The translations under genes were made by a program, and so were the position numbers. A stretch of DNA of 59,477 nt, counting the filler. It is 7 parts of 7 records of this genome, joined end to end, with 100 filler letters (N's around TTAATTAATTAA, not from the genome) between each part and the next. Parts side by side here need not be neighbours in the genome. Positions count along the whole stretch, not along the records: positions 1 to 12,047 come from SRR31156797_25270; 6 more parts are not named here. One strand, given 5' to 3'. Positions 1,488 through 59,477 of the stretch are shown here, piece after piece. Below the pieces are notes generated by a model. It was not told where the DNA came from, did not search any database, and was given only the letters and a program-made list of their open reading frames with translations. Position 1 is the stretch's first letter; each line of letters begins with the position of its first letter.

Positions 1488-1631
1488 CTTGAAAATTATC
1501 TTATTTGAACATTGCACACACAACCATTCTTGATTAGCCTTCGCCAATCATATTTCAAATTGTTTCTCACACAGGCTGATTCCTCTATCACGCCTGATTA
1601 ATCACCATATATAAAAATTCAGGAGCAGAAA

Positions 1632-2198
1632 ATGAAAGTTCTTTGCCTTCAAGGCAGTGCCAGAAAAAATGGCCATACCGCTAAAATGATCGAATGGGTT
1701 GAAGAAGAACTCAAGGAAATGGGCCACGAAGTTGAGTCCATCTACCTCAACGACAAGGACATGAAAGGCTGTATGGCCTGTGCCAAGTGTAAGGAAAAGC
1801 CGGAAGAAATCGGCTGTGTGATCAAAGACGATATCCCTGCAATTCTGGAGCAGATGGTTGCCGCCGACGCAGTTGTCTTCGCTTCTCCGCTCTACTTCTG
1901 GGGACCGTCCGCACAACTCAAAACAGTAATCGACAGAACATACAGCCTGTACGTGGACTACCATATGCCAACCCACGATTCCCTGATCAAAGGTCAGCGT
2001 CACGGCATTCTGATCACTGGCGGCGGACCTTACGAAAACAACGCTGCGGAAACCTTCACCGGACTCGCCAGAATGCAAAAACCGCACATGACCAATCACA
2101 CCGCAACTCTGTTCTTGGGTGGCTGTAAGAACCCCGAGAACCTCGGGGAAGAAGCCAAACAGAAGGCAATAGAATTTGCCAGAGAACTGGTTAAATAA
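1632..2198 (+). CDS. Flavodoxin-family iron-sulfur flavoprotein
   Basis: GSARKNGHT FMN loop, CMACAKC...C, FASPLYF; AGGAG RBS. Confidence 0.9.
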   Translation: MKVLCLQGSARKNGHTAKMIEWVEEELKEMGHEVESIYLNDKDMKGCMACAKCKEKPEEIGCVIKDDIPAILEQMVAADAVVFASPLYFWGPSAQLKTVIDRTYSLYVDYHMPTHDSLIKGQRHGILITGGGPYENNAAETFTGLARMQKPHMTNHTATLFLGGCKNPENLGEEAKQKAIEFARELVK

Positions 2199-2226
2199 AA
2201 CTCTTCGCACCCTTTCTTAAGAATAA

Positions 2227-2255
2227 GCCTGACGTGATTTCTAATCACGTCAGGC
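2227..2255. terminator. 13-bp perfect hairpin after the flavoprotein gene
   Basis: GCCTGACGTGATT-TCT-AATCACGTCAGGC; no clear U-tract. Confidence 0.5.
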
Positions 2256-2285
2256 CACCAAACAACCCCATCCCATCCATTATAA

Positions 2286-2316
2286 GTCGTTTCAAACACC
2301 GAAAACGGCATTTCAA
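2286..2316 (+). promoter_or_regulatory. Putative LytTR response-regulator binding site upstream of cstA
   Basis: Direct repeat GTCGTTTCAA-N11-GGCATTTCAA, 21-bp period. Confidence 0.7.
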
Positions 2317-2398
2317 ACACAAAGCATAGAATCCACCCCGTCCTTTATGCCAGAAGAGGGGCATAATTTTTTTCAGCAAAAGGACGGAGGAACTTCTT

Positions 2399-3817
2399 AT
2401 GCTATTTTTCTTTGCCTGTGTGGCAGCACTTATCGTCGGTTATCTTCTTTACGGTAAATTCGTGGACAACGTGTTCACCCCGGATGCAAAACGCACCACT
2501 CCCGCATACACTAAACGGGATGATGTCGACTACATGCCTATGCCCATGTGGAAACTCATGTTCATTCAGGTTCTGGACATTGCCGGGATCGGCCCCATCT
2601 TCGGCCCCATTCTCGGTGCCCTGTACGGTCCTGTTGCCCTCATCTGGATCGTTATCGGCTGTATCTTTGCCGGAGCCGTTCATGACTACTTCAGCGGTAT
2701 GCTTTCAATCCGCAACAACGGCGCATCCGTACCCGAACTGGTCGGTGAATACCTCGGTATGACTGCCCGTCAGGTAATGCGTGTCTTCGCATTCGTACTG
2801 CTCATGCTGGTCGGTGTTGTATTCGTACTCGCCCCCGCGAAGCTGCTCACCGGCCTGACCGGAGTGGAGACCGGAATCCTCGTAGCCTGCATCTTCGGAT
2901 ACTACTTCCTCGCCACCATCCTGCCCATCGATAAACTCATCGGTAAACTCTACCCCCTGTTCGGCGCACTGCTGCTGATCATGACTGTATCCCTTGCAAT
3001 CGCGCTCATGTTCAGCGGTCACACCATGCTGCCCAACCTCGATTTCGCAGTTAACTTCCACCCCGGAGACAAACCCATCTGGCCCCTGCTTTTCATCACC
3101 CTGTCCTGCGGCGCAATCAGCGGTTTCCACGCCACTCAGTCTCCGCTCATGGCCCGTTGCGTAAAGAATGAAAAAGAAGGCCGTCCCGTATTCTACGGCG
3201 CAATGATCATCGAAGGTATCATCGGCCTGATCTGGTGTACCCTCGGCCTGTCCTTCTACGAATCCCCCGAAGCACTCAACGCAGTTATCGCTGCCGGTTC
3301 CCCTTCCGCAGTAGTATCTGAAGTTGCAAACTCCCTGCTCGGCCCCATCGGCGGCATCTTCGCCATCGTAGCTGTTGTAATCCTGCCCATCACCAGTGGT
3401 GATACCGCTTTCCGCTCCACCCGCCTCATTGTAGCGGAAACCTTCAAAATGGATCAGGGTCCCGCAATCAAGCGTCTCATGATTGCAGTACCCCTGTTCG
3501 CTCTGGGTTACATCATCTCCACCCAGAACTTCTCTGCAATCTGGAGATACTTCGGTTTCTCCAACCAGTGCCTGTCCATGCTGGTTCTCTGGACCTCCGC
3601 AGTATACCTCGCCCAGCGTGCGAAACTGCACTGGATCGCATCCATCCCCGCAACCTTCATGACCGCAGTTGTTGCCACATTCATCTGTCAGGCCAAGATC
3701 GGTTTCGGACTGGACATGAACATCTCCATCATGATCGGTATCGCAGCAGCAGTAGCAACATTCGGTGCCTTCTTCGTGAAGTACGTTCGCCCCAAAGCAG
3801 CAGTTGAAGCCAACTAA
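2399..3817 (+). CDS. cstA: Carbon starvation CstA-family transporter
   Basis: IAGIGPIFGP, GAVHDY, CGAISGFHATQSP, PITSGDTAFRS; multi-TM; GGAGG RBS. Confidence 0.93.
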   Translation: MLFFFACVAALIVGYLLYGKFVDNVFTPDAKRTTPAYTKRDDVDYMPMPMWKLMFIQVLDIAGIGPIFGPILGALYGPVALIWIVIGCIFAGAVHDYFSGMLSIRNNGASVPELVGEYLGMTARQVMRVFAFVLLMLVGVVFVLAPAKLLTGLTGVETGILVACIFGYYFLATILPIDKLIGKLYPLFGALLLIMTVSLAIALMFSGHTMLPNLDFAVNFHPGDKPIWPLLFITLSCGAISGFHATQSPLMARCVKNEKEGRPVFYGAMIIEGIIGLIWCTLGLSFYESPEALNAVIAAGSPSAVVSEVANSLLGPIGGIFAIVAVVILPITSGDTAFRSTRLIVAETFKMDQGPAIKRLMIAVPLFALGYIISTQNFSAIWRYFGFSNQCLSMLVLWTSAVYLAQRAKLHWIASIPATFMTAVVATFICQAKIGFGLDMNISIMIGIAAAVATFGAFFVKYVRPKAAVEAN

Positions 3818-3857
3818 ACCATCTTCCTATAGATAAACACACCCCACTCCTTAATAG

Positions 3858-3894
3858 AAAGTCCCCCGCTTGCTGATGCAGGCGGGGGGCTTTT
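3858..3894 (+). terminator. Intrinsic terminator after cstA
   Basis: GTCCCCCGCTTGC/GCAGGCGGGGGGC stem followed by TTTT. Confidence 0.85.
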
Positions 3895-3929
3895 GTATGT
3901 TAAGCTTAGGCTAAAAATTCAGCACAACA

Positions 3930-3958
3930 TTTACAAGACGAGACATTTATTATATCAT
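3930..3958 (+). promoter_or_regulatory. sigma70-like promoter of the TPR-MBL gene
   Basis: TTTACA-N17-TATCAT. Confidence 0.6.
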
Positions 3959-3990
3959 CTCATATATTTAGCTAACAAATGAGGGGTTAC

Positions 3991-6483
3991 ATGAAAACAT
4001 CTGATGAATTAGTTCAGTTATTCAAAAACGAATGGAAATGGAAAATTACAACTAATGCCTGTCTCGACTTTCTAAACAATTGCTTAACTACAGCAGCGAA
4101 TATACAAGATAATTTATTAGTTCTTATCTTTGAAGGATTTACCCAACAGATCAAAAAGAATTTTTCTGATGCGGAAGATTTATTCCAAAAAGCTCATAAC
4201 ATTGACTCTAATTCTGATCTAGTTCTTTACGGTTTAAGCCTTTCAACTCATGCACAACACAAACTCGAACTAGCTCAAAAATATGCACAAGAAGCCTTAA
4301 TACTTGATCCAACATCTGCTCTCTTTCTATATAGATTAGGATCAGTATTATATAGCATGAATAACCTTTACGAAGCTGAACATAATTTAAGTAATTCAAT
4401 TTCTGAAGACAACAATTACGCCACCCCTCATATCTTACTAAGTAAGATATATCGGAGACAAGAACAATATAATGAAGCAATCCAACAAGCACAAAAGGCC
4501 CATACAATTAACCCTGACGATTACGAACCTCTTTACGAAATAGCGATTGCATATGATGGTTTAGGTGAAACCCTAAAAGCAGTTAAGTACTGTGAAGAAG
4601 CAATTACAAAAGAAAACACAACCACCTACCCTTATTATTTGATTTCAAATATATATACAAATCAAGAAGAAACACATAAGGCTATTGAATATTACGAAAA
4701 AGCATACAATCATGCACCAGACAACATTGACCCACTAATCAGAATTGCAGACATATACAATTCTCAAGACGACCCAGATACAGCACTAGAATACCTTACT
4801 GAAGCACATGAAGTTGACAACAACAGTTTTAGTTTATGGAATAATTTTGGTAACACCTACCGAAAACTCAAAGATTACAAAAAATCGCTTTCATCATATG
4901 AAAAATCTCTGCGAATCAAACCAGACTACACTATAGCACTTATAAACATAGCCCTACTTTACAACTACGATTTAAACAATGAAGATATTGCATATAGAAA
5001 CTTTGAGCTGGCATTGCAGTATGCACAACAGAATGACGAAGTATACATCTCTAATAGAGCCCAGTTCCATTTAAATAAAATTGAAGAGAAAAAACCAATT
5101 GTCGCTTTTTTAAATGCGGCTACTCCACCTAAAGAACCTGCTAAAAAGGTGCTTCGAGACACACTTAAAAAAAATATTATTCACGGTGACAATGCTTTAA
5201 GCATAGAAGACATAATACATGAAAACAAAAAGTCATTTCAAAACTTCCTAAAAGAACCAACAACGATAAATATAACCAGCGAAGATCAACAGAGCTACTT
5301 TCAAGTCCTAAGACGGTGGAATTCATACACGCCTATAATAGCTGACAACTTCCATATAAGCAAAGGAGGAGGTTATTTTTTAAAAGTCAATGGAAAAGGA
5401 ATTGTTATTGATCCAGGGTTTAACTTTATAGACAACTTTCGTGGAGAGCATCATTTCTTTTATGAAATAGATGCTGTTTTAATATCACATGCACATAACG
5501 ACCATACAGCAGACCTAGAATCAATACTAACCCTACTTTATAAATATAATGAAAGTATAAAAGGTGATCGAGACAACCCAAGTGAAGGATCTATAAGAGC
5601 AGAATTAGCAGAAAAACACAATAAAGCAGCAAATGACATATCAGACAGAGAAATAGATATAGCTTTCAACAAATCACCGAGACGGAAGACTATTGACCTA
5701 TACATGACACAAAGCACATTTAAAAAATATAGTGGCATGTTTAGTCTAATGAAAAGCACTAATTACAAAATACATATATTTGAAAGTGAAGACATAAAAA
5801 AAATCTGTAATATAGAGATAAAAGCATTACCAGCGAAACACCATGACATACTTTCCAACCAAGACTCCATTGGCTTTGCCTTCAACATCGGCAATGCCTC
5901 TATAGTGTATACGGGAGACACCGGCTGGGGCAAAACAATTGAAAAAAGTTATAGAAACTTAAGAAGAACGAGATTTTACAAAAATAAATCCTTCACACTT
6001 CTTGTTGCACATATAGGAGGTTTTAAAGCACATGAGATTAAATATGTTAACCCCAAAACACAAAGCGAATCATATTATAAATATCACTTAGGACGACTTG
6101 GACTCGCTAAAGTTAATGAACTGCTAAAACCAGACTTATGCTTCATTTCGGAATTTGGCGAAGAATTGAAAGGACACAGAATACATTTAGCTCAAATTTA
6201 TACAGATGCTTTTAAAAACACATCAAAACCAACCATTTTTTTCCCTGCCGACATCAATCTCACAGCTTTTTTGGAAACAGGTAAAATTAAAGCTGTTACA
6301 GCACTAGCTCCAGAAGCAAAGGAGCTGGAACATAGAAGAAAATTTGACGTTATATCACCAGATAAAGTCGGATTTAGACTTCTTCGAAAAGACTACTCCA
6401 TCCATTATTTTGAGAAAGAAGCCATTGACGAATGCGAACTTGTTAGTATCCTACATGAATTATATGATGACAGTATGAAATAA
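3991..6483 (+). CDS. TPR-repeat plus MBL-fold metallo-hydrolase fusion
   Basis: Tandem TPRs over about aa 45-370; IVIDPG, SHAHNDH (HxHxDH), PAKHHD, YTGDTG; GAGGGG RBS favours ATG 3991 over 3979; AT-rich relative to flanks. Confidence 0.88.
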   Translation: MKTSDELVQLFKNEWKWKITTNACLDFLNNCLTTAANIQDNLLVLIFEGFTQQIKKNFSDAEDLFQKAHNIDSNSDLVLYGLSLSTHAQHKLELAQKYAQEALILDPTSALFLYRLGSVLYSMNNLYEAEHNLSNSISEDNNYATPHILLSKIYRRQEQYNEAIQQAQKAHTINPDDYEPLYEIAIAYDGLGETLKAVKYCEEAITKENTTTYPYYLISNIYTNQEETHKAIEYYEKAYNHAPDNIDPLIRIADIYNSQDDPDTALEYLTEAHEVDNNSFSLWNNFGNTYRKLKDYKKSLSSYEKSLRIKPDYTIALINIALLYNYDLNNEDIAYRNFELALQYAQQNDEVYISNRAQFHLNKIEEKKPIVAFLNAATPPKEPAKKVLRDTLKKNIIHGDNALSIEDIIHENKKSFQNFLKEPTTINITSEDQQSYFQVLRRWNSYTPIIADNFHISKGGGYFLKVNGKGIVIDPGFNFIDNFRGEHHFFYEIDAVLISHAHNDHTADLESILTLLYKYNESIKGDRDNPSEGSIRAELAEKHNKAANDISDREIDIAFNKSPRRKTIDLYMTQSTFKKYSGMFSLMKSTNYKIHIFESEDIKKICNIEIKALPAKHHDILSNQDSIGFAFNIGNASIVYTGDTGWGKTIEKSYRNLRRTRFYKNKSFTLLVAHIGGFKAHEIKYVNPKTQSESYYKYHLGRLGLAKVNELLKPDLCFISEFGEELKGHRIHLAQIYTDAFKNTSKPTIFFPADINLTAFLETGKIKAVTALAPEAKELEHRRKFDVISPDKVGFRLLRKDYSIHYFEKEAIDECELVSILHELYDDSMK

Positions 6484-6527
6484 ACACCAACACAACCTAA
6501 TATTATATAAGCGAGCTGCTTAATATC

Positions 6528-6581
6528 CCTCCACTCCGGCACAATATCCAACAGCTCTCCGGTAATTGATCCTTGCCGGGT
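6528..6581 (-). pseudogene. Diverged duplicate of the atpG 3' end
   Basis: Reverse strand reads [14 protein letters not shown], then a 1-nt deletion, then AGVE; atpG reads [18 protein letters not shown]; 42/55 nt identical to 9655-9709 by manual alignment. Confidence 0.85.
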
Positions 6582-6589
6582 AAGAACCC

Positions 6590-6628
6590 AAAAAAAAAAG
6601 GCCCGCTCACAAAAGTAAGCGGGCTTTT
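6590..6628. terminator. Bidirectional intrinsic terminator
   Basis: A-tract, GGCCCGCT/AGCGGGCT stem, T-tract, between convergent genes. Confidence 0.85.
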
Positions 6629-6647
6629 CTAATTCTAACTTCCTTCC

Positions 6648-7769
6648 TCAATCCCCAAGATAAATCCTATACTTCAAAACAGCTGTTTGCCCATCGTCCA
6701 AATATTCAAACTCTATCATTTCCCCTTCTTCAATCATGACCTTGGCTGCGGACCTTGGCATAAGATATGGAGATTTCGTCAGCATCGCCATGGCCTTCTT
6801 TTTAGCATCGGCAAGTGCCGCCTTCTGTGATGCAATTTTCCTGTTCAGGGTATCAGATAGCTTGCTATGCCCCTTCCCGCTAACGACCAGCTCAAGGTTC
6901 TCATACTTGGGGGCAGGCTTCAGCTTTTCCGCAGGCCTTCCAGCTGCCGTACTGCCGGATTTCTCTTTATCAACATCAATAGCAGTATTGAATAAAAAAG
7001 AATCCACAAGAGAAGAAGAGCTCCATGGAACCTGCTTGCCCTTTGTAGCATGCTGCACGGCAAGCCGGACTTTCCGAAGCATGATCTCTATATCCGTATT
7101 CGGGCTAGAAATATTTTCGAGAAGAGCTTCGGTAAAGACTCCGTTACGCCCTTCACCGTCAGCAGCTACTTGGCCGGGGGCAGTCGCATATACTAGTATT
7201 GTCCCGGAAGGGGCCTGCATGACGGCCAATCCCCTGTTCTTTTGAAAAACAGCTCTGGAACCAGTCCCGGTAAAAGGATCATTCCGGCAGGCATCAAGGA
7301 TAATAATATTAACAGCAGTCCCGGCAGCCTGCAGAATCTCTAGGATATAATTCAAGCTTACACATTGAAATTTCACATCTGTAATGTTTTCGATCTTCGC
7401 ATCTACAGGGATGAGGTAATTTCCACCCCCTACCTGTACACCATGTCCGGCGTAGTAAAAGAGAGCCACAGAATTACGGGTAAGTTCGCTTGAAAACTCT
7501 GAAACCAAGCGTCCGGTTTCCTGCCTTGAACAATTGATTGCGCTTTTAACCTTAAATCCCAATTTATCCAACATGGTAGCGATATCTCGGGCGTCATTTG
7601 CCGGATTAGCCAAAGGGGCTTCGGGATATGCCGAATTCCCGATGACCAAAGCAAATCTTTCCGGGGATGCTGCAAGCGAGAAATCTGACGCAGCTACCGA
7701 AAAGATGAGAACAAACAGCAAACAGGCCGCCCGTATACAAGGACGGCCTGTTACATTTTCCTCAAACAT
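6648..7769 (-). CDS. Secreted caspase-family (peptidase C14) protein
   Basis: ALVIGNSAY, YAGHG (His), LDACR (Cys), KQVPW; hydrophobic signal-like N-terminus; ATG 7769 lies 4 nt after the upstream stop. Confidence 0.9.
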   Translation of the reverse strand: MFEENVTGRPCIRAACLLFVLIFSVAASDFSLAASPERFALVIGNSAYPEAPLANPANDARDIATMLDKLGFKVKSAINCSRQETGRLVSEFSSELTRNSVALFYYAGHGVQVGGGNYLIPVDAKIENITDVKFQCVSLNYILEILQAAGTAVNIIILDACRNDPFTGTGSRAVFQKNRGLAVMQAPSGTILVYATAPGQVAADGEGRNGVFTEALLENISSPNTDIEIMLRKVRLAVQHATKGKQVPWSSSSLVDSFLFNTAIDVDKEKSGSTAAGRPAEKLKPAPKYENLELVVSGKGHSKLSDTLNRKIASQKAALADAKKKAMAMLTKSPYLMPRSAAKVMIEEGEMIEFEYLDDGQTAVLKYRIYLGD

Positions 7770-7773
7770 TGTT

Positions 7774-8694
7774 CTACAAGTTGTCAGTATAGCCACTTTC
7801 TTTCTTTTTACTCTTTGCACGGTCTATAAAATAATCGTTGATGGCAATCAGAATAGGTCTTTTGGCATGCTCAGCATAAGTTGAAACATACAAGAGATCA
7901 CCACGGATATTCCAGATCCCCACTTTCTTGATATGATACCTTCCTTTATCGTCAGCCACCCTGTTCTTGGTAAAACGCTGGGGTTTACCAAATTTACCTA
8001 CGATAAGATCGAGCAACTTGTCCCCAAGCCCCGGTTCCGCATATTTGTCCACGAAAAAGTAAAGGTTATCTACTTTTCCATTTTCCATATCCAAAACCAT
8101 GTTACCATCAATACCGATAGGTGGCAGGTTATGCACTTCCAACTTTGCCGGATCAGTATAGAACTTGGTAACACAGGTCTTACCCGTATCGATCTGAGGA
8201 ACAGTTGTTATACTCTGTCCCGGGCAAGGCTGAACCTTTTTGGGTAATGGAGCACCGATAACGATCCCCCTCAAAGAAAACTTACCCGCGTAGTCCAGCG
8301 GTTTAATCTTATTAATAGACAAACCGAGCATTGGAACCATCCTCTCAAACAGCTCCAGTTCCGCCATGGTTTCATTGACCAAATTCTGCTCGTCAGCGGC
8401 ATATTCACAAACAGCCCGTGATTTTCCAACAAGGACATTACGGTAAAAGCAAAGTACCGCATATTTGTATGTGCCTATTTCAGAAATGACATACTTACGG
8501 AACCTGACACCGTTATCATAACTACTCCGGTCCCTGAAATGTGAACCCATGGCATCATTCACATCGTAAAGGGCTTCCCCGCCAGCCAGATCATTTACAT
8601 ACTTCTTACGTTTGTGCAGAACACACCCGGTAAGTGACGTAGCTATAAAAACCATTAGAAGTATAATGCAGCATATTTTTTTCATCTTAAACAC
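7774..8694 (-). CDS. Hypothetical lipoprotein
   Basis: MKKICCIILLMVFIATSLTGC lipobox. Confidence 0.75.
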   Translation of the reverse strand: MFKMKKICCIILLMVFIATSLTGCVLHKRKKYVNDLAGGEALYDVNDAMGSHFRDRSSYDNGVRFRKYVISEIGTYKYAVLCFYRNVLVGKSRAVCEYAADEQNLVNETMAELELFERMVPMLGLSINKIKPLDYAGKFSLRGIVIGAPLPKKVQPCPGQSITTVPQIDTGKTCVTKFYTDPAKLEVHNLPPIGIDGNMVLDMENGKVDNLYFFVDKYAEPGLGDKLLDLIVGKFGKPQRFTKNRVADDKGRYHIKKVGIWNIRGDLLYVSTYAEHAKRPILIAINDYFIDRAKSKKKESGYTDNL

Positions 8695-8699
8695 ACCAC

Positions 8700-9533
8700 C
8701 TAATCACCGGTAAGAATTGAAGAAATCATTGCCCTAACAACTCTCTTAAGACCATCCTGCATTCCGGTATCCGAAACGCCAGCCTGCCCAACCCAGAATA
8801 TCTGGGAGGTCTTAACGTCTACAACCTTTGCAGTCAGCCCAATACGAGAGATAGTAGAAAAAGTTCTCTTCGGCTTGGCGTAATAATCTTCCTGCCATTC
8901 ATCGATGGTCTTAGCCCGTTCCAACTCAGGAAGCATGATTCCAGTTCGGGCCGCAAATTTATCACTCTCCATTTCGTACTCTGACCGCTCACTTTCAAAC
9001 ATTTCAACATCCCGGTCATAGCGGGGAATATCATTTTTTACGATGATCCGGTTCAACGATATATTGAGGCTATCGGTGTACTTGTCGGTAACAGAGCCGA
9101 AAACGAAATAATCAGCATGAACAAGGCGCCCGATACGCTGGGCGATTTCAAGGTCAGTAAGCCCTGTCTTATGTTCACTCATCATAGCCTGCTCACGCAC
9201 AACCTTATCAATCTCTTCTCTGTCAATAACGTGGTATCCCTTAGTCTTGAGTTCAATAATCAAGCGATCTGAAACCATTGACCCCGAGGTGTTGTCATTG
9301 GCTTTGAAATTCATAATTGCAAAAGTTTTTTGTTTGGTGAGAGGCTTTTTATTCATCCTGAATGAATCAAGATTCATAGGGGTGACCACTGCTTCCTGAA
9401 TGGTTTCGTAAATGGATTTAGGTGGAATAGGATAAGCCGGAGCCCTTGGTTGTTTAGGGATACATCCCAACCCCAAAACTGAAACCGCCGCCAGAACCAA
9501 CACAACTTTAACAAACCGTAAATACTTCTTCAT
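8700..9533 (-). CDS. CsgG/HfaB-like (TolB-N fold) lipoprotein
   Basis: LGLGC lipobox; VIDREEIDKVVREQ, IGRLVHADYFVFGSV, AKVVDVKTSQIFW. Confidence 0.78.
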   Translation of the reverse strand: MKKYLRFVKVVLVLAAVSVLGLGCIPKQPRAPAYPIPPKSIYETIQEAVVTPMNLDSFRMNKKPLTKQKTFAIMNFKANDNTSGSMVSDRLIIELKTKGYHVIDREEIDKVVREQAMMSEHKTGLTDLEIAQRIGRLVHADYFVFGSVTDKYTDSLNISLNRIIVKNDIPRYDRDVEMFESERSEYEMESDKFAARTGIMLPELERAKTIDEWQEDYYAKPKRTFSTISRIGLTAKVVDVKTSQIFWVGQAGVSDTGMQDGLKRVVRAMISSILTGD

Positions 9534-9563
9534 ATGCCCCTCCCTAAATGATTTTAGTTCAAA

Positions 9564-9596
9564 TTAAACTTTAAAAGTATATAAAGTTTAAGTCAA
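9564..9596 (-). promoter_or_regulatory. sigma70 promoter overlapped by a palindromic operator
   Basis: Minus strand TTGACT-N17-TAAAGT; inverted repeat TTAAACTTTA-N8-TAAAGTTTAA at 9564-9591. Confidence 0.6.
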
Positions 9597-9637
9597 CGGG
9601 GTTTGCCAAATTGATGTGCTACTTTAGCGATTAGATA

Positions 9638-10498
9638 TTACCCTCCTACAACTGCCTCCACCCCGGCAACAATATCAAGTAACTCACCTGTAATATTCCC
9701 CTGCCGGGTGGTGCGGTATTCGGATTCTAGGACCTCGACATGTTCGATGATATTCTTCTCGGCTACCTGCATTGCGGCAAGGCGAGAACTGTTCTCGGCG
9801 GCTAAAGATTGAACAATTCCGCCGTATACGGAGATATACAGGTATTCCCTGAATAAACTTGAGAATAAATGTTGAACCGGGACATTAGTCATGGGTAGGG
9901 ATTTTCCATTCCATTTCGTGCTTCCGCTGCGCTTATGGAGTGGTAATATATGACGAAACGCAACCTTAGCCCCGTCGCTGACATGCAGGTTATTTACTAT
10001 GGTGAAATGGTTCATCCCGCGCTTGATACGCCACTCTTCCAAGTGCTGCTCTATGTCATCAACAATGGTATCAACTCCACGCAAGCTACCCGGCACCCGA
10101 AAATTCAAATCTACCTCGACGCCAGAATCCTCCAGCGCACCACGCACCCGCTCCCCGCAGGTCCAGCAGACTACCTTGTGACCTGCGCCATGAAGTTCAT
10201 CTACGACCTTTACTGTTTCGGCCCGTGCCAGCTCATTAAACTGTCCGCACATGCCCTGATCAGAACCGATAGCCAGCACCACGGCGACACCATCCCTTGG
10301 GCCATGAGGCAAGATTCCGGCATTGCGGAAAAAGACAGTCCAGCCCTGTTCGATGACCTCAGCATACTCACCGACTCCCTTAGCCGCATTCTCAAAATGG
10401 CGGATATTAACCGCAGCAAGGGCCTTCATGGTCTTGACCACCGAAAGCAAATCGCCCGTGGTCGCAATCTTTTTGCGCACGGCCTCAAGCTGCTGCAT
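9638..10498 (-). CDS. atpG: ATP synthase gamma subunit, N-ATPase type
   Basis: [52 protein letters not shown] before ATG 10498. Confidence 0.95.
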
Positions 10499-12011
10499 TC
10501 GCCTCCCTCCACTTCTGCATATGATGAGTGACCGCCTTTTCAAGCTCGGCCCAGATTTCATCCTTAGGTTCGGCCTGCGCCAGACGGCCCATAGATTCAA
10601 AGCTCTCTTCCATGCGAGTCAGCAAATATTCTTGCACTGCAGCTATGCGCTCCAGCGGGATATCATCCAGCAATCCAAGCGAAACCGTCCAGAGAATAAC
10701 CACCTGCTGGGCAGCGCTGAGCGGCGAAAAACGATCCTGTTTGAGCAATTCACGCACTCTCATTCCATGTTCAATACGGTTGCGGGTATCCTGATCCAGC
10801 CTTGTGCCGAACCTTGCGAACGCCTCCAATTCCTGAAACTGAGAGTAGGTCAACCGCAAATCGCCGGAAACCTTGCGATAAGCCTTGGGTTGTGCACGCC
10901 CACCCACACGGGAAACCGACTTACCTACATCAATTGCCGGGAGCATACCCTTCTGGAACAGTACCGGAGAAAGATAGATCTGTCCGTCGGTAATGGAAAT
11001 GAGGTTGGTGGGAATGTAGGCCGAAATGTTCTGAGCCTCGGTTTCCACTATGGGCAGTGCGGTTAATGTACCGCCGCCGTGTTCCGGCTTAAGCCTTGTG
11101 GACCGTTCCAGAAGTCTTGAGTGGATATAAAAGATATCGCCCGGAAAAGCTTCACGCCCCGGCGGACGACGCATAAGCAAGCTGAGCTGACGGTAGGCCT
11201 GAGCATGGCGGGTCAGGTCATCGTAGACAATGAGTACATCCTTACCCTGCTCCATGAAATATTCAGCCATACTCGTTGCCGCATAGGGCGCGATGTACTG
11301 CATACCCGAAGGCGCATCGCCCTCGACCACAACCACGAAAGTATGATCCATGGCCCCATGGTTACGCAAAGTATCAATGACTCGTGCCACCGAAGTACTG
11401 CGCTGACCGATGGCACAATAAACGCACACAACTTCACCCTGTTTCTGGTTCAGGATTATATCGAGAGCAATGGCGGTTTTCCCGGTCTGACGGTCGCCAA
11501 GTATCAATTCACGCTGACCGCGCCCGATGGGTATCAATGTATCAATGACCTTGATCCCACTCGCCATGGGAGTATCAACAGGAGCGCGCATCAGGATAGG
11601 TGGAGCTTCCGATTCCACCACACGGGTCTCGAATGTTTCCGGAGCAGGTCCGCCATCAAGAGGATTCCCCAACGGGTCCACAATGCGCCCGATCAGCGCA
11701 TCCCCCACCGGAACACTCAGCACCGTGCCGGACGGAACAGCCTCATCCCCGGCTTTAAGACCTGTATTGTCACCCAGCAATGCGATGCCGATCGAATCCG
11801 GCAGCAGATCAAGGGCCATACCCGGAACATCATTACCTAAAGTGATCAACTCTTCCGAGCGCACCGAGCCTAATCCCTGCACCTGCGCCACGCCACGAGC
11901 CACGGATAAAACCCGGCCAACTTCACGCGAGTCCGGGCTGTATTCCATCTTCTCGCGGCCCTTTTCATGAGCATTCAAGGCCTGATTTATATTTTTTTCT
12001 AGGAATGACAT
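10485..12011 (-). CDS. atpA: ATP synthase alpha subunit, N-ATPase type
   Basis: GDRQTGKT Walker [25 protein letters not shown]. Confidence 0.97.
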
Positions 12012-53861: not shown

Positions 53862-54211
53862 NNNNNNNNNNNNNNNNNNNNNNNNNNNNNNNNNNNNNNN
53901 NNNNNTTAATTAATTAANNNNNNNNNNNNNNNNNNNNNNNNNNNNNNNNNNNNNNNNNNNNCTGCCCCTACACGGTATTATGCGATTATTTGTGTAATTC
54001 ATTATAATTTTCTTACTTATCTTAATATAAAAATATGAAGTTTAACTTAAAACATAATTATTTTATAATTAATTTTCTCAAGTTTTATTAGATTTAAATA
54101 CACTAATTCATATCTTAAATTTGACAAAAATATTTTTTAGTGATAGCATTAAAATGGAATTTTAAGGAAAAATAGTTTTAAAATTCAAAAATATACGTAG
54201 AGGGCAGACTA

Positions 54212-54442
54212 ATGGGTGAATATTTTTTAGATTTAGACGATCAAATTAAATTAACGATAAAAACAAGATATAAATTATTGGATGTATTAAATCATCAATC
54301 TTATTATTCAAATAATCTTGACGATTTACTTAAAATTTATGATATGATTCAATCAAAAAAGGCAATATATGAAGTAATTAGCATTAAAAATGATAAGATA
54401 AAAATGCGTGAAATAATGTCTTATAAAGGGAAGTTATTTTAA
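54212..54442 (+). CDS. Hypothetical 76-aa protein
   Basis: GAGGG RBS; TTGACA at 54121 upstream; open frame in AT-rich DNA. Confidence 0.55.
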   Translation: MGEYFLDLDDQIKLTIKTRYKLLDVLNHQSYYSNNLDDLLKIYDMIQSKKAIYEVISIKNDKIKMREIMSYKGKLF

Positions 54443-54475
54443 GAAAAATTATTATTTTGCAATAAGATACTAGGA

Positions 54476-55681
54476 GTGAAAAAGATGCAGACCATAGAAA
54501 CATTTAATTCCCCGATATATATGAATAAAACAGATGTATTCTATAGACTTCCATCTGCAGTTGATTTAGATGAATTTTGGGATGATTTGATAGAGTATAG
54601 GAGAAATAACTCTATTAGCTTAGAAGTTAAAAATTTATATAGAAACAATTTTTATATTTGTTTAACTGATCACTTGAAAGAAACTATAGTTGAAATAGAT
54701 GATCTCTCGAAAAAAAACATTTTGGCAGATCTAAAACCGGAAATTAGAGATGAGTTAATAAAAAATGCAATGGAAACAGAGGCGTATTTTACATCACTAA
54801 TAGAAGGAATAGACGTTTCGTGGGATAAAAGTCGAAGATTAATAGAAGGAGCTGAAGAAGCTAAAGATATTAGTGAACAAATTGTAATCAATAGTTATAA
54901 TGCTCTGATGCATATGAGCGACAATCTGGATGCTGATATAGATGAGAAGTTTATATTTAAATTATACAGTATAATAACAGACGATATTCTGGAAGATGAT
55001 GAAACAATAGAAACATATAGGCCAGAGGGAAGCTTCACAAAGCTAATAGGTAAAAAAGAGTACTCAGCACCACTGCATGAAGAGATTGAAGTGATGATAA
55101 GCGATTTGCTGGAGTTTATAAATCTTAATAAAGAAATAAGACTTCATCCTTTGTTGAAAGCAAGCATAATCCATTTTTATATCCTTTATGTTCAACCTTT
55201 TTCATTTGGAAACGGTATATTGGCACGTGCAATTGCGTATATGTATTTATTAAAAAATGGCTTTGATGTATTTAGATATTTTTCTTTATCAAGTATGCTG
55301 AAAGACCAAAAAATGAAGTATAATAACTCTCTAATAGAAGTAGAAGAGTATAAAGAGGATATTACTTATTTTTGTGTTTTTAATGCTGAAATAATGATAA
55401 AAAATATAAAGCAGATAATAGAGGACTTTAATAAAAAATATAAGCTAAAAGTTATCGAGATGAAAACACAGGATCTGGGCTTTGAACTGAGTAAAAGACA
55501 ATTAAAACTGATAGAGAGAGTGATGAAATACTCTGTTAAATCAATTGATATAGAGTACTATAAAAAATTCAATAAAGTAACTCAGGAAACTGCTCGTACA
55601 GATATGGAAGAGCTGGTAAAGTTTGAAATATTTTATAAAGAAAAACATGGTAAAAAGTTTGTATATATAATGGTTGAATAA
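54476..55681 (+). CDS. Fic-family protein with non-canonical motif and C-terminal wHTH
   Basis: TSLIEG inhibitory helix, QPFSFGNGILAR, TARTDMEEL. Confidence 0.85.
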   Translation: MKKMQTIETFNSPIYMNKTDVFYRLPSAVDLDEFWDDLIEYRRNNSISLEVKNLYRNNFYICLTDHLKETIVEIDDLSKKNILADLKPEIRDELIKNAMETEAYFTSLIEGIDVSWDKSRRLIEGAEEAKDISEQIVINSYNALMHMSDNLDADIDEKFIFKLYSIITDDILEDDETIETYRPEGSFTKLIGKKEYSAPLHEEIEVMISDLLEFINLNKEIRLHPLLKASIIHFYILYVQPFSFGNGILARAIAYMYLLKNGFDVFRYFSLSSMLKDQKMKYNNSLIEVEEYKEDITYFCVFNAEIMIKNIKQIIEDFNKKYKLKVIEMKTQDLGFELSKRQLKLIERVMKYSVKSIDIEYYKKFNKVTQETARTDMEELVKFEIFYKEKHGKKFVYIMVE

Positions 55682-55685
55682 AATC

Positions 55686-55726
55686 AAATCCCCTCAATAA
55701 GCTATATGCTGATTGAGGGGATTTTT
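55686..55726. repeat. Repeated hairpin/terminator, copy 1
   Basis: AAATCCCCTCAAT-N13-ATTGAGGGGATTT between convergent genes. Confidence 0.8.
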
Positions 55727-55741
55727 ATTTTAACATCTCTT

Positions 55742-56509
55742 TTAGTCGTCTTTTTTTAGTCTTTTTTGAACTTTAGCCCAGCTTGGTGTGATTAAGAAAC
55801 TCTCTTCCATTCCATCAATGATTTTTTCAAATTTTTTGTATGGAATAGCAAATGACAGAGTATTAGGGAAAACAGAAGGTCTTGCACTTACATCAAACAT
55901 TCCCATTATACTTTTTGGCTTATCTTTTAGAGCTTCTACTCTCGGATAAGTAATAATTGATCCACATCCAGATACAAATGGTGAAATGATACTACTCGGC
56001 TCACTCTCTTCGAAATTATCAAGAGTAAATATAGCTGATAAAACATCAGGTGTGCTAAAGAAAATAACAGCCTCCGGATTATCCTTTTCAGTTAATTTAT
56101 CCCATCTTTTAAATACTAAGTTTTTCCCGCCAGCTTCCATTTTAGGCACTGTTTTGATATATTCTAATGCTAATTCAGGAGTTCTTTTGTATCTTTCTCC
56201 CTCCATTTTTCCTTCAATTCCACATGAAAGGAAATATTCGAAATTCGGCATTTTGATTTGTTTGAATCCTGTATATGAAGCTCCACCCGGACATCCAAAT
56301 GAGTTTTCGTTAAAAATAACATCTTTTCCATCAAATGCTTTTCTAAGTTGCCCTAAGAAACATACAAAATTTGGTGGAGTTACTTTTGGTGCAACTATAG
56401 TTTCACCCTCAATATCCTCATCAGTATAATAAAAAGCAATTGGTAATCTTGCTTCTCCAAAATATTTTTCCCATAATTCCACAAATTGATCCCTAATTTT
56501 TATATCCAT
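55742..56509 (-). CDS. DUF169-family protein
   Basis: LPIAFYY, CFLGQL, GCPGG, SGCGSI, GMFDVSAR; GGAGG RBS before ATG 56509. Confidence 0.78.
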   Translation of the reverse strand: MDIKIRDQFVELWEKYFGEARLPIAFYYTDEDIEGETIVAPKVTPPNFVCFLGQLRKAFDGKDVIFNENSFGCPGGASYTGFKQIKMPNFEYFLSCGIEGKMEGERYKRTPELALEYIKTVPKMEAGGKNLVFKRWDKLTEKDNPEAVIFFSTPDVLSAIFTLDNFEESEPSSIISPFVSGCGSIITYPRVEALKDKPKSIMGMFDVSARPSVFPNTLSFAIPYKKFEKIIDGMEESFLITPSWAKVQKRLKKDD

Positions 56510-56941
56510 AATCGCCTCCCTTGATTTTATTTGAAACATAAAATTTAAATCTGTATTTTATTCTAACATATCTAACGGAAAAAGACCATTGTTTATTTGT
56601 TTGGTAATTAATGGTTCACAAAATGAGCAATTAAAGTAAGAGGGAAAAGTTAAAAGCTTAAATTTCGTAACTTTAATAGCTAAATAATTTTAATAATACG
56701 CAAAATTGTCGAATTCTAAATTTTTCGATAAAAAAATATAGATGTTCCGTTTATAAGTTGTTATTTTCACTTTATATAAATTTTAATTAGTATTTTAGAA
56801 CAGTTACTTACAAATTATCCATAAAATAGAATTTGTATCTTAAAGAAAAATATTAATTTTATCTAAGATGTTTTTAAACTTTGAGGGGTAATATCAAAAT
56901 AGAGGTTAAATTATAACTAAAACTAGCAAAGGGGTAATGCA

Positions 56942-57577
56942 ATGGTAGAGATATTTGTTAAGAAAAAATTGAAAAAAGAAAAAATAGACTTGAACTGCAA
57001 ATTTTCCCTTGAAAAAGGAGAAGTAACTACTATATATGGAAAGTTAGGCTCTGGAAATATGAAATTATTGGATGTAATTGAGGGAACACTGGCAGCAGAT
57101 GAAGGATATATGATAGATTCAGATGATGAACATAAATTAAATGTAGTTGCATACGCTGAGAACTTTAAGTACAAGAATAATAAGAGTATAAAAAATAATA
57201 TCTTAATGATAGCCGGAAGAAAAAATCGTAAATTTGCAGAAGAAGTATTGGAGCATCTTGAACTTAAGAGATTTGAGAAACAGCTACCATCATCACTTAA
57301 TAAAAGAGATTTTGAAAAGTTTACACTTGCAATGTGTTTGGTAAAAACTCCGGATATATTAGTATTACATAAGTTTTATAACTCTTTTAGTTTTGATATA
57401 GAGAGTCAGTTAAAATACTTCTTAGAAAAATGCAATATGGCTGTAATTGCCATCACGGAGAATTTTAAAAATGTACCGAAATTAGCATCAAAATTATTAT
57501 TCATTCATGAAGGTGAAATTAATAAAACGATAATCTTGAAAGAAGAAGAGAGTAAAAAATTAGGATTAGCATTTTAG
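56942..57577 (+). CDS. ModC-like ABC ATPase-fold protein with degenerate motifs
   Basis: GKLGSGNM at Walker A, LNKRD at the signature, LVLHK at Walker B. Confidence 0.7.
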   Translation: MVEIFVKKKLKKEKIDLNCKFSLEKGEVTTIYGKLGSGNMKLLDVIEGTLAADEGYMIDSDDEHKLNVVAYAENFKYKNNKSIKNNILMIAGRKNRKFAEEVLEHLELKRFEKQLPSSLNKRDFEKFTLAMCLVKTPDILVLHKFYNSFSFDIESQLKYFLEKCNMAVIAITENFKNVPKLASKLLFIHEGEINKTIILKEEESKKLGLAF

Positions 57578-57605
57578 ATAAAAATAATAACCGAATAAAA
57601 TAGAA

Positions 57606-57643
57606 CCCCTCAATGAGTTATATACTGATTGAGGGATTTTTTT
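57606..57643 (+). repeat. Repeated hairpin/terminator, copy 2
   Basis: CCCCTCAAT-N13-ATTGAGGGATTTTTTT. Confidence 0.8.
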
Positions 57644-57729
57644 GTTTGATAGGCTTCTAAATGTCTTGAATCAGATATTTTTTGGTGCTATACTTAAAAT
57701 AAGAAGTAATAAAATTAAGGGGGAAACTG

Positions 57730-57900
57730 ATGGATAAAAGAATAGCTAAAGATACAGGATGTCCATTTTGTGGAAATACTTTTTTTGAAGGAAACTTGGT
57801 AGGTGTTTACGAAGAGGACGGTAAATTGGTGATATATTGTCCGGGCTGTGGCTATGATATCGAAGTGCGAATAGGCGAAGACGGTAAAGTTTACTTTTAA
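57730..57900 (+). CDS. 56-aa zinc-ribbon microprotein (not in the ORF track)
   Basis: MDKRIAKDTGCPFCGNTFFEGNLVGVYEEDGKLVIYCPGCGYDIEVRIGEDGKVYF; AAGGGGG RBS; followed by a terminator. Confidence 0.85.
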   Translation: MDKRIAKDTGCPFCGNTFFEGNLVGVYEEDGKLVIYCPGCGYDIEVRIGEDGKVYF

Positions 57901-57901
57901 G

Positions 57902-57940
57902 AAATGAGTGTTATATTTCGAATATAACACTCATTTTTTT
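57902..57940 (+). terminator. Intrinsic terminator
   Basis: AAATGAGTGTTATAT/ATATAACACTCATTT plus T-run. Confidence 0.88.
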
Positions 57941-58084
57941 ATGTATTTCGCAATATTGATTTGCATTTTACCAAAAGCACCATGCAGTTAACCATTGTAA
58001 GGGCTACAAATAACTTAATTTACTATATAATTAATTTAAGAACGAAAGCTTAACTAAGCAAATTATAAGTATGGAGGAGTTATT

Positions 58085-59455
58085 ATGAAGATAACAGTTT
58101 TGATTGGAAGTCCAAAGGGTGACGTTAGTATTACTTATCAATTTTTGAAATATATAGAGAAAAAATTTCCAAATGTAGAGTTTGAGGAGTTTAAAATATC
58201 ACAGCAAATTAAATCAATTGAAAATAATAATAATAAGTTTGATGAAATTATGAACTCAATTAAGAGTTCCGACGCTGTATTATGGCTAACACCTGTATAT
58301 CATTTTACAATTCCGGGTCAATTAAAAAGATTTGTAGAATTGATATTCGAAAGAGGTTGTGAAAACTATTTTAAAGGGAAATATGCCACATTGCTAACTA
58401 CTTCGATTCATTTTTATGATCATATGGCAGAAAACTATATTCAGGGAATTTCAGAGGATTTAGAGATGAAATATGTTAGAGGTTTTTTAGCTGGAATGAA
58501 TGATCTGCCAAAACAGGAAAAAAGAGATATGTTAATTGATTTTTTCACTGATTTCAAAAGAAAAGTTGAAAATGAAATTTCAGTGAACTCAATATTTCCA
58601 AAGGTAAATAAAATTGATTGGGAATTTAATCCACAAAAAATTGAAGAAGTTTCGAAAAATTCTAAGCATAAAATACTTGCAATTACAGATATAGAAAATA
58701 ATGATTCAAATATAGCTAAGATGCTGGAAACGTATAAAAAGTTAATTCCAAATGAAATTGAAATAATAAATCTAAATGATCTAAATATAAAATCAGGCTG
58801 TATCGGATGTTGTATTTGTGGTGGAAATAATGTATGTAGTATATCTGATGATTTAATTGAAATTTATCATGACAAAATGGAAAAAGCTGATGCAATAGTA
58901 TATTTCGGAGAGATTAAAGATAGGTATCTTTCAGCGAAATTCAAAATATTCTTTGATAGGAGTTTTGTAAGAGGACATGCTCCAGTTTATACAGGAAAAC
59001 ATATAGCATATGTAATATCGGGGCCTCTTTCTCAAATTCCAAATTTAAGAGAAGAAATCAGAGCTAGAACTGAAGCAGGAGGATTAAATTTTGTAGATGT
59101 AGTCAGTGATGAGATTGTAGATGAAGGTGAACTGGTTAAAAAATTAAAAGACAGTGCTGAGAATTTAATTTATTACCTAAATAATAATATCAGTACACAG
59201 TCAGGATTTTATGAAACATCGGCTCATAAAATTTTTAGAGATTTTATACATGGAATTAGACCTGTTTTCGCTGCCGATCATAGATTTTACGCGAAAAATA
59301 AAGGTTATGATTTTCCTAATAAAAATATAATAAAAACGTTCTTTAGTCAATTTCTTTATATTTTACTTAAAAATAAAAAAATAAGAAAAGTTTTTAATAC
59401 AAAAATGAAAGTGCAAATGATTATGCCCTCTAAAAGAGTAGTAGATGAATTTTAG
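58085..59455 (+). CDS. Tandem flavodoxin-fold (FMN reductase / Fe-S flavoprotein) protein
   Basis: GSPKG..SIT, TPVY, second domain CIGCCIC...C; GGAGG RBS. Confidence 0.85.
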   Translation: MKITVLIGSPKGDVSITYQFLKYIEKKFPNVEFEEFKISQQIKSIENNNNKFDEIMNSIKSSDAVLWLTPVYHFTIPGQLKRFVELIFERGCENYFKGKYATLLTTSIHFYDHMAENYIQGISEDLEMKYVRGFLAGMNDLPKQEKRDMLIDFFTDFKRKVENEISVNSIFPKVNKIDWEFNPQKIEEVSKNSKHKILAITDIENNDSNIAKMLETYKKLIPNEIEIINLNDLNIKSGCIGCCICGGNNVCSISDDLIEIYHDKMEKADAIVYFGEIKDRYLSAKFKIFFDRSFVRGHAPVYTGKHIAYVISGPLSQIPNLREEIRARTEAGGLNFVDVVSDEIVDEGELVKKLKDSAENLIYYLNNNISTQSGFYETSAHKIFRDFIHGIRPVFAADHRFYAKNKGYDFPNKNIIKTFFSQFLYILLKNKKIRKVFNTKMKVQMIMPSKRVVDEF

Positions 59456-59477
59456 TTTCTTTTTAATACATCACTTC

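Follow-up and report, generated by a model that had tools for sequence, protein, structure and literature searches.

The window analysed here, a stretch of 59,477 nucleotides (filler included) joined from seven parts of one genome, carries between cstA and atpG a gene for an 834-amino-acid protein in which an N-terminal array of tetratricopeptide repeats (TPR) is fused to a metallo-β-lactamase (MBL) domain. The status of this TPR-MBL gene as horizontally acquired, accessory and strain-specific cargo is well supported by sequence comparison, because none of the 26 congeneric genomes contains its DNA, 8 of the 16 informative ones have an empty site, the best relative of its MBL half is 56% identical compared with 96% for the neighbouring AtpG, and the protein falls into a clade of mixed phyla. 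With regard to function, we tentatively favour a role as an effector in conflicts with phages or mobile elements.

Acquisition of the TPR-MBL gene between cstA and atpG

The host is assigned to Maridesulfovibrio, a sulfate-reducing bacterium. AtpG, encoded beside the gene, shares 96% identity with its counterpart in 'Desulfovibrio sp. JC022' and 77-90% with numerous proteins from Maridesulfovibrio; given such close relatives, the host lineage is well sampled. The best relative of the MBL half in a search of 5.8 billion proteins is encoded by a Desulfobacterales metagenome-assembled genome (MAG). Window positions 1600-12000 were searched by blastn against 26 Maridesulfovibrio species genomes, including Maridesulfovibrio sp. 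FT414 (locus L015 = G001). The cstA/atpG flanks were matched in all 26 congeners and positions 3904-6592 in none. Three of the 26 contain the family module, each at another locus and in the form of distant relatives only. Both flanks lie on one contig in 16 genomes, which we treat as informative. Eight of these have an empty site with a cstA-atpG gap of 28-180 bp (G024, G023, G018, G017, G021, G004, G003 and G001) and seven have the gap filled by other inserts of 0.7-2.7 kb (G008, G020, G025, G013, G016, G011 and G014). The remaining genome, G009, carries the caspase cluster that lies next to the TPR-MBL gene in the window, at 87% identity and preceded by a different 0.76-kb insert. The gene is thus not core, its site being empty or differently filled in relatives, which bears out the horizontal acquisition suggested by the initial annotation of this DNA.

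The insert and its borders comprise the following features:

3897-6527, no strand assigned: strain-specific AT-rich insert with the TPR-MBL gene (unmatched in congeners; GC 0.33-0.35)
3979-6483, plus strand: TPR-MBL open reading frame (ORF), 834 aa as listed; a start at ATG 3991 would give 830 aa
6528-6582, no strand assigned: remnant copy of the atpG 3' end, 55 nt, ~80% identical to 9656-9711 (blastn to the atpG ends of G024 and G020; side-by-side comparison)

The GC content is 0.33-0.35 over 4001-6500, as against 0.55-0.56 in cstA and 0.53-0.56 in atpG/atpA (flanks overall 0.45-0.56), and the gene is therefore more AT-rich than cstA, as annotated. On the left, blastn homology to congeners stops at 3894-3903, at the cstA terminator. 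On the right, homology to G009 picks up again at 6593, so that the hairpin at 6597-6628 belongs to the caspase cluster. The short copy at 6528-6582 looks like the old atpG end, displaced when an element integrated at the atpG 3' end, and would mark the border of the old site before the caspase cluster. No convincing target-site duplication or terminal inverted repeats flank the insert; the two terminators share an 11-nt GGGCTTTT(G/C)TA, the sole flanking repeat, which may be due to chance. Contigs of one run (X1), the probable source sample, contain all 305 31-mers sampled from 3700-6700; the insert junctions thus recur in a second assembly, although this comes from the same sample and does not constitute independent data. 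Among sequencing runs, the stretch was found in the probable source sample only and no RNA run was listed with it.

The cstA|atpG junction is, by these comparisons, a genus-wide variable hotspot holding toxin-antitoxin (TA) or defence-type cargo. We examined 18 ORFs in the alternative inserts (loci L066-L073, from G008, G009, G011, G013, G014, G016, G020 and G025). Nothing recognisable was found among the ORFs of the G008 insert; the other inserts contain:

G014: a complete PADLOC candidate system, PDC-M07A and PDC-M07B (E 1e-124 and 2e-45)
G011 and G013: RHH and ParE
G016: a 653-aa protein with an Mrr_cat domain (E 1e-4, 22.7 bits, cut-off 21)
G020: an Mrr_N-like ORF (below cut-off)
G009: DUF4160 and a weak HTH
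G025: a DUF2442-like ORF (below cut-off)

Even if a defence function should prove wrong, the locus clearly illustrates how single-gene cargo turns over at one chromosomal hotspot of sulfate-reducing bacteria.

Domain architecture and MBL fold

The TPR-MBL protein combines a helical repeat solenoid with an MBL domain whose catalytic motifs are intact. Its size, its long TPR array, its complete metal site and the lack of an evident signal peptide had all been read from the DNA in the initial annotation and hold on closer inspection. Pfam places TPR families at about aa 40-360 (TPR_2, E 9e-31), and the translation contains LRRWNSYTP (aa 444-452), SKGGGYF (461-467), HAHNDH (504-509), KHHD (620-623) and GDTG (646-649). 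Direct reading of the translation revealed no hydrophobic stretch at the N-terminus, and TPR-MBL is predicted to be a cytoplasmic, single-chain protein. An AlphaFold2 (AF2) model of the full-length protein (pLDDT 90, pTM 0.75) and one of the C-terminal 437 aa (pLDDT 89, pTM 0.90, with one low-confidence loop at aa 451-461) suggest the following layout:

4000-5112, plus strand: TPR solenoid, aa 8-378, about ten helix hairpins (20 paired helices, aa 8-351) and a capping helix (355-378), from AF2
5113-5289, plus strand: helical linker, aa 379-437, of lower model confidence (block pLDDT 64-84)
5290-6258, plus strand: MBL phosphodiesterase core, aa 438-760, with D478, H504xH506xD508H509, H621, D647, H678 and H703
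6259-6480, plus strand: C-terminal beta-rich subdomain and terminal helix, aa 761-834, from secondary structure; conserved in the family

Three MBL profiles of Pfam score above their cut-offs, namely Lactamase_B_2 (PF12706; 52.7, cut-off 27), Lactamase_B_3 (30.9, cut-off 24) and Lactamase_B (23.8, cut-off 22.7). The metal ligands are invariant or nearly so in 44 and in 11 aligned sequences and all five superfamily motifs are present. We compared the MBL model with solved structures using Foldseek and a full VIA scan, with alignments mainly over model residues 37-376. The model has the alpha-beta/beta-alpha sandwich of the superfamily. VIA matched 102 solved chains with Z >= 8; the 50 rows listed are without exception MBL-fold proteins, including:

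1zkp: ElaC homologue, B. anthracis (Z 25.0, 250 aligned, rmsd 3.3)
8gyg: MBL arylsulfatase (Z 24.3, Foldseek top match, 17% identity)
2cbn: E. coli ZipD/RNase BN (Z 23.7)
3g1p: PhnP (Z 22.2)
4ojx: yeast PDE1 (Z 22.2)
3bk1: RNase J (Z 22.2)
6v4x_H: chain of the human histone pre-mRNA 3'-end processing machinery, which we take to be CPSF73 (Z 22.0)
3zwf: RNase Z/ElaC class (Z 21.8)
7u2r: Apyc1 (Z 21.6; Foldseek for Apyc1/YhfI, E 1e-10 to 6e-13)
9ic4: ComEC MBL domain, the nuclease type of canu and Hachiman (Z 16.4)

The domain is therefore well supported, at the level of the model, as a binuclear-metal phosphodiesterase fold of the RNase Z/ElaC structural class, and the RNase Z/PhnP-type relationship guessed at initially agrees with the fold comparison. 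A sequence search of the Protein Data Bank (PDB) gave 8gyg as the best match (E 1.8e-6) and nothing better. The NCBIfam RNase_Z and ElaC models score far below threshold (TIGR02651, 24.0 bits, cut-off 292.95; NF000801, 24.7, cut-off 252), with alignment restricted to aa 465-520, and the Apyc1 profile PF23023 likewise falls short (14.4 bits, cut-off 50). Searches of the ESM Atlas returned generic MBL or Apyc1-like clusters only, PF23023 being assigned to 65-74% of neighbour cluster members. Matches among the viral structures of BFVD were weaker than those in the PDB (best E 4.6e-9).

A widespread family with a variable TPR half and a conserved MBL half

A family profile was searched against 1.84 billion cluster representatives and identified 2489 proteins with E <= 1e-3, of which 1226 reach E <= 1e-30 and span many phyla including archaea. 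The best 150 representatives consist of 19 TPR-annotated proteins from an earlier search and 131 new ones, the latter comprising 102 proteins with an N-terminal extension of at least 100 aa, 19 module-only forms and 10 C-terminally extended forms. The window TPR half is matched directly by 51 of the 102 N-extended proteins; 48 are linked transitively to these 51, a loose criterion without a Pfam call, and 3 are unlinked, one of them SIR2-like. Judged among these 150 representatives, most family members are predicted to be TPR fusions. All architectures share the signatures LR[KR]WNSYTP, KGGGYF, DPGxNF, SHAHNDHT, xDTG, NHLGxxG and SEFGEE.

The two halves of the TPR fusions differ in their variability. 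In 43 homologues the TPR half has a median identity of 20% and a length of 215-566 aa, compared with 50% and 378-428 aa for the MBL half. This sensor-like asymmetry, a variable repeat 'sensor' joined to a conserved effector in one chain, is supported by the alignments and accords with the layout of repeat array and catalytic domain described in the initial annotation.

In a quick maximum-likelihood tree built from 66 module sequences (L010, with a module shorter than 300 aa, was excluded, and L006, L022 and L026 were left out), the window protein groups within 31 TPR fusions that form a clade supported at 100% by SH-aLRT. Bacillota, Thermodesulfobacteriota, Planctomycetota, Ignavibacteriota, Nitrospirota, Spirochaetota and Chloroflexota are among the phyla represented in this clade. 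The nearest tree rows of the window protein are L079 and a Desulfobacterales MAG. The congener copies of FT414 and G013 belong to a different clade (support 99), and the third congener copy, from G002, sits on a 3.5-long branch whose placement is flagged as unsure. A pattern scan of 2.9 million viral contigs yielded no true family member, with 5 weak motif-level matches of 26-40% identity over ~50-80 aa. In the literature searched we found no account of this family or of the DpdB-MBL pair described below, although supplements of the cited papers could list such proteins.

Genomic context of TPR-fused and TPR-less relatives

We inspected 55 loci of TPR-fused homologues, consisting of 20 genome loci with two genes on each side and 35 metagenome loci with one gene on each side. 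Roughly a dozen of the 55 have immediate neighbours of mobile, TA or defence type:

L011: AbiZ and integrase
L002: D5 primase
L014: reverse transcriptase (RT)
L004: Tn5 fragment
L018: YhgA-like transposase
L019: AAA_21 ATPase
L025: YafQ
L114 and L116: MazF
L082: recombinase
L106: DDE transposase
L079:6011-11503: 1050-aa SIR2_2+TPR gene, same strand, 52 bp after the TPR-MBL gene

L079 is the closest relative with genomic context (54% identity over 441 aligned columns), and its arrangement may represent a two-gene set of repeat-sensor effectors. PDB sequence searches of two further L079 neighbours gave no matches. Genes of the radical-SAM or SPASM type directly adjoin TPR-MBL genes in L004, L091, L110 and L113, some of which come from related metagenomes. 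In the three Altarchaeum-type loci (L019, L128 and L138) the TPR-MBL gene is followed each time by a 3-dehydroquinate synthase (DHQS) II gene, and by this arrangement the gene sits in conserved, housekeeping-looking synteny in that lineage.

Relatives without the TPR array recur beside genes for DNA-directed functions. A DpdB-like gene immediately precedes the module-only or C-extended form in 4 of 4 genome loci (L013, L016, L017 and L021, the last forming with L022 two copies on one contig), where the PADLOC DpdB match has E values of 1e-30 to 1e-37. The same pairing is present in all 8 metagenome loci with upstream sequence (L115, L121, L125, L132, L135, L141, L145 and L150), and the truncated locus L119 is also consistent with it. 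Exceptions are L012, encoding a 536-aa form without DpdB, and L029, which has no upstream sequence. Further genes of the DpdB-MBL operons encode an SNF2 helicase (ZorD/DpdE-like), a GHKL ATPase, radical-SAM proteins or Mrr nucleases, and the L121 operon contains methyltransferase (MTase), ResIII and BglII genes resembling a type III restriction-modification system. The DpdB-like and MBL gene pair may constitute a restriction- or modification-type system, possibly an undescribed one because PADLOC has no model for the MBL partner. DpdB-paired forms cluster together in the tree (support 91). A further architecture, a 773-aa fusion of SIR2 to the MBL module, is encoded at L030:7818-10139 between cmr5/cmr6 and cas6 in a type III-B CRISPR operon of a Desulfobacterium MAG; P0299 is the only cluster of this kind among the 150 best family representatives.

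Proposed function and alternative explanations

TPR-MBL is plausibly an anti-phage or anti-mobile-element conflict effector, a reading that we hold at somewhat less than even confidence. The fast-evolving array of about ten TPRs would be the ligand- or protein-binding part, and its target a protein derived from an invader or from stress. On binding, the array would either set the MBL domain free or recruit it, and nucleic acid, the presumed substrate, would be cleaved, leading to restriction or growth arrest. We favour a defence role because the same site holds TA and defence cargo in congeners, because TPR-less relatives occur in DpdB/Mrr/SNF2/GHKL operons and the SIR2 fusion in a Cmr operon, and because the TPR-MBL gene of L079 is followed 52 bp on by a SIR2_2+TPR gene. 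The acquired and accessory status of the gene, the RNase Z-type fold with intact metal ligands, the sensor-like asymmetry of the two halves and the precedents discussed below also count in favour of this reading.

Several observations weigh against such a role. None of the 5027 models of PADLOC-DB v2 matches the protein, even at E <= 1. The genes immediately beside TPR-fused homologues mostly have housekeeping roles (for example FBPase, RNase Y, EPSP synthase, POR, LeuRS and DHQS) or are unknown. The enrichment of homologues in defence islands that had been anticipated is not clearly seen, as PADLOC matches at E <= 1e-10 around 20 TPR-fused homologues amount to 7 of 113 within 4 kb and 11 of 86 at 5.5-10 kb, a comparison of near and far bands without a genome-wide background, and several of these matches are generic (ABC ATPase, radical SAM, RmuC). 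The DpdB-paired and SIR2-fused forms fall into other clades than the window protein, so that their context may not transfer to it. Finally, phosphodiesterases of cyclic nucleotides and small molecules are among the closest solved relatives, so that the substrate may be other than nucleic acid. The defence role put forward by the initial annotation thus draws circumstantial support from the cargo of congeners and the operons of relatives, none from PADLOC matches to the protein and no clear support from the distribution of such matches around homologues.

A broader possibility, which we advance with less confidence still, is that the RRWNSYTP...KGGG...SEFGEE module defines an unrecognised family of immune effector phosphodiesterases on the RNase Z branch that is wired in three ways, with the window gene as a single-protein anti-phage system in the cstA-atpG hotspot. 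The three wirings may be fusion to a hypervariable TPR array, pairing with a DpdB-like protein in restriction-like operons, and fusion to SIR2 as a type III-B CRISPR accessory. If TPR-MBL proteins do act in defence, a widespread and so far unannotated effector family with 1226 representatives would be added to bacterial immunity, with an RNase Z-like nuclease type distinct from the recently described ComEC-like MBL nucleases. The window protein would then be a compact sensor-effector whose TPR array could be used to look for phage triggers, and its DpdB-paired and Cmr-embedded relatives would become testable restriction or CRISPR-accessory modules.

The alternative that survives best, though we consider it unlikely, is an accessory non-immune enzyme, namely a horizontally acquired RNase Z-like phosphodiesterase of RNA processing or turnover whose TPR array would dock to a partner in the cell, for instance the ribosome, the degradosome or a regulator. 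RNase Z, RNase J and CPSF73 among the structural neighbours fit such an enzyme, as do housekeeping neighbours such as RNase Y in L009 and the downstream DHQS II gene of the Altarchaeum-type loci, and the lack of PADLOC matches and of a near-versus-far PADLOC gradient. The patchy spread of the family (3 of 26 congeners), the many phyla mixed in the window clade, the TA and defence cargo at the hotspot in congeners, the hypervariability of the TPR half and the recurrence of the module in DpdB/Mrr/SNF2 operons and a Cmr operon argue against it.

Less probable again is a phosphodiesterase of cyclic (oligo)nucleotides similar to YhfI and Apyc1. Such an enzyme would degrade a signalling nucleotide, for instance to tune or shut off a second messenger or the signal of a CBASS, Pycsar or type III CRISPR system, and its TPR array would be used for localisation. 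YhfI (6kns, 6knt) and Apyc1 (7u2s, 7u2r) are among the best Foldseek/VIA matches, the weak PF23023 match and the PF23023-rich neighbour clusters of the ESM Atlas point the same way, and one SIR2 fusion lies within a type III CRISPR operon. However, the PF23023 score is far below its cut-off, the pattern scan of 2.9 million viral contigs returned no true family member, no CBASS, Pycsar or type III genes adjoin the window gene, and the DpdB, Mrr and SNF2 partners of relatives point to DNA. A phage origin with an anti-defence role was dropped in view of the 5 weak motif-level matches in viral contigs and of BFVD matches weaker than those in the PDB; lacking family members in that scan, the gene is not taken to be a phage anti-defence gene.

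Hydrolysis of a non-nucleotide ester, by an MBL-type aryl- or alkyl-sulfatase or a phosphonate-pathway enzyme, appears very improbable. The arylsulfatase 8gyg is both the best PDB sequence match and the top Foldseek match and PhnP-family enzymes are structurally close, but identity to 8gyg is only 17%, the protein is predicted to be cytoplasmic and is TPR-fused, family members occur alongside DpdB, Mrr, SNF2, SIR2 and Cmr genes, and no sulfur or phosphonate genes adjoin the window gene.

The adjacent caspase cluster

Downstream of the TPR-MBL gene lies a cluster of three genes, the first convergent with it and separated from it by a terminator:

6648-9533, minus strand: caspase cluster, Peptidase_C14, then a 306-aa protein, then a CsgG-like protein
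6648-7820, minus strand: Peptidase_C14 gene, 165 bp downstream of the TPR-MBL gene

The caspase gene matches the PADLOC 'caspase' model (E 6e-14). By reading, the caspase has a signal-peptide-like N-terminus and the 306-aa and CsgG-like proteins have lipobox-like motifs; the 306-aa protein has no Pfam match. These features mark the locus as a predicted three-gene envelope cluster. It counts as a second, independent insertion at the same site because only 1 of 26 congeners (G009, 87% identity) has it, there without the TPR-MBL gene. None of the 55 TPR-MBL loci has a caspase or trypsin neighbour within the one or two genes inspected on each side.

In canu systems, according to one report, a ComEC-like MBL pro-nuclease is switched on by a caspase, and the loci include TPR domains (PMC12799240). 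A canu-like pairing in which TPR-MBL is the nuclease half and the adjacent gene the caspase is rejected as scarcely credible despite this precedent, the 165-bp distance and the PADLOC match, since the caspase gene is convergent, terminator-separated and, by its N-terminus, apparently exported, is kept by G009 without the TPR-MBL gene and has no counterpart beside homologues, and since the MBL domain is nearer to ElaC (Z 25) than to ComEC (Z 16.4).

Comparison with known systems

TPR-MBL resembles RNase Z/ElaC/RNase BN in belonging to the same MBL branch (Z 25.0 and 23.7 over 245-250 residues) and in its HxHxDH motif with further His/Asp ligands. It differs in scoring 24 bits against a model cut-off of 293, in carrying RRWNSYTP...KGGG as its first loop where RNase Z has a glycine-rich motif, in a ~60-aa helical insertion after motif 2 and a ~75-aa extra C-terminal subdomain, and in the fused N-terminal array of ten TPRs. 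Apyc1, whose role lies in phage-host conflict, and YhfI have a close fold (Z 21.6), but TPR-MBL falls below the PF23023 cut-off, has a module of ~400 aa instead of ~250 aa and is TPR-fused; its gene is chromosomal and the pattern scan of viral contigs found no family member.

MBL nucleases have a precedent as defence effectors, as one report describes (PMC12799240). The HamM, Avs1-associated and CanC pro-nucleases covered there share with TPR-MBL the use of an MBL-fold hydrolase as immune effector, an immune role here being a candidate one, and differ in being ComEC-like, encoded as separate genes and activated by a partner protease (PMC12799240). In TPR-MBL, by contrast with such protease-gated pro-nucleases, a sensor-like domain is fused in cis and no protease partner is conserved. 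Two disordered gating insertions characterise the ComEC-like domain of those pro-nucleases; the TPR-MBL models show one loop of low confidence (aa 451-461).

DSR2 works as a single-chain sensor-effector. SIR2 proteins of the Dsr1/DSR2 type and fusions with an Avs7 sensor likewise join a variable alpha-solenoid sensor to a conserved enzymatic effector in one polypeptide without an NTPase; the sensor of Avs7/Dsr1 is bilobed, whereas TPR-MBL has a canonical N-terminal TPR array and an RNase Z-type MBL domain. Dsr1 and Avs7 provide a precedent for sensor-effector defence proteins without an NTPase, and MBL is among the abbreviations in the Fig. 2 legend of the source, implying MBL domains in some Avs7-sensor proteins (bioRxiv 10.64898/2026.01.04.697583). 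A likeness to Dpd/Dnd is confined to the TPR-less relatives, which adjoin a DpdB-like gene and SNF2 helicases resembling DpdE/ZorD; no other Dpd/Dnd gene was detected by PADLOC or Pfam among the operon proteins scanned, and the window gene, in another clade, has no DpdB neighbour.

Local signals and other features of the window

The TPR-MBL gene is bounded by hairpins that fold strongly, in line with the terminators annotated at first:

3853-3897, plus strand: cstA intrinsic terminator hairpin (dG -36.7, z -7.0; terminator scan)
3930-3958, plus strand: promoter-like TTTACA-17-TATCAT, 10/12 consensus matches
3981-3986, plus strand: Shine-Dalgarno-like GAGGGG, by direct reading, within the listed ORF and 4 nt ahead of ATG 3991
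6597-6628, no strand assigned: bidirectional terminator hairpin, common to the convergent caspase gene (z -4.9 and -5.4)

The downstream hairpin has an A-run before it and a T-run after it and can therefore work in both directions. Because GAGGGG sits ahead of ATG 3991, a start there is likelier than at ATG 3979, and the true protein probably has 830 aa, the approximate size first annotated. The listed start at ATG 3979 has no ribosome-binding site. The gene had been credited with its own promoter and ribosome-binding site; GAGGGG fits the latter, while the promoter-like match belongs to a class of sites found in the AT-rich region at the frequency expected from shuffles (11 against 10.5), without excess. 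Rfam gave no matches at gathering thresholds over the whole window, and an exact-sequence look-up of six window proteins found no identical entry in the protein collection searched. The GC content of the window is very uneven, ~0.58-0.64 over 16000-40000 and 0.25-0.30 over the last 5.5 kb (54000-59477), which may reflect further islands or mosaic or mis-joined sequence.

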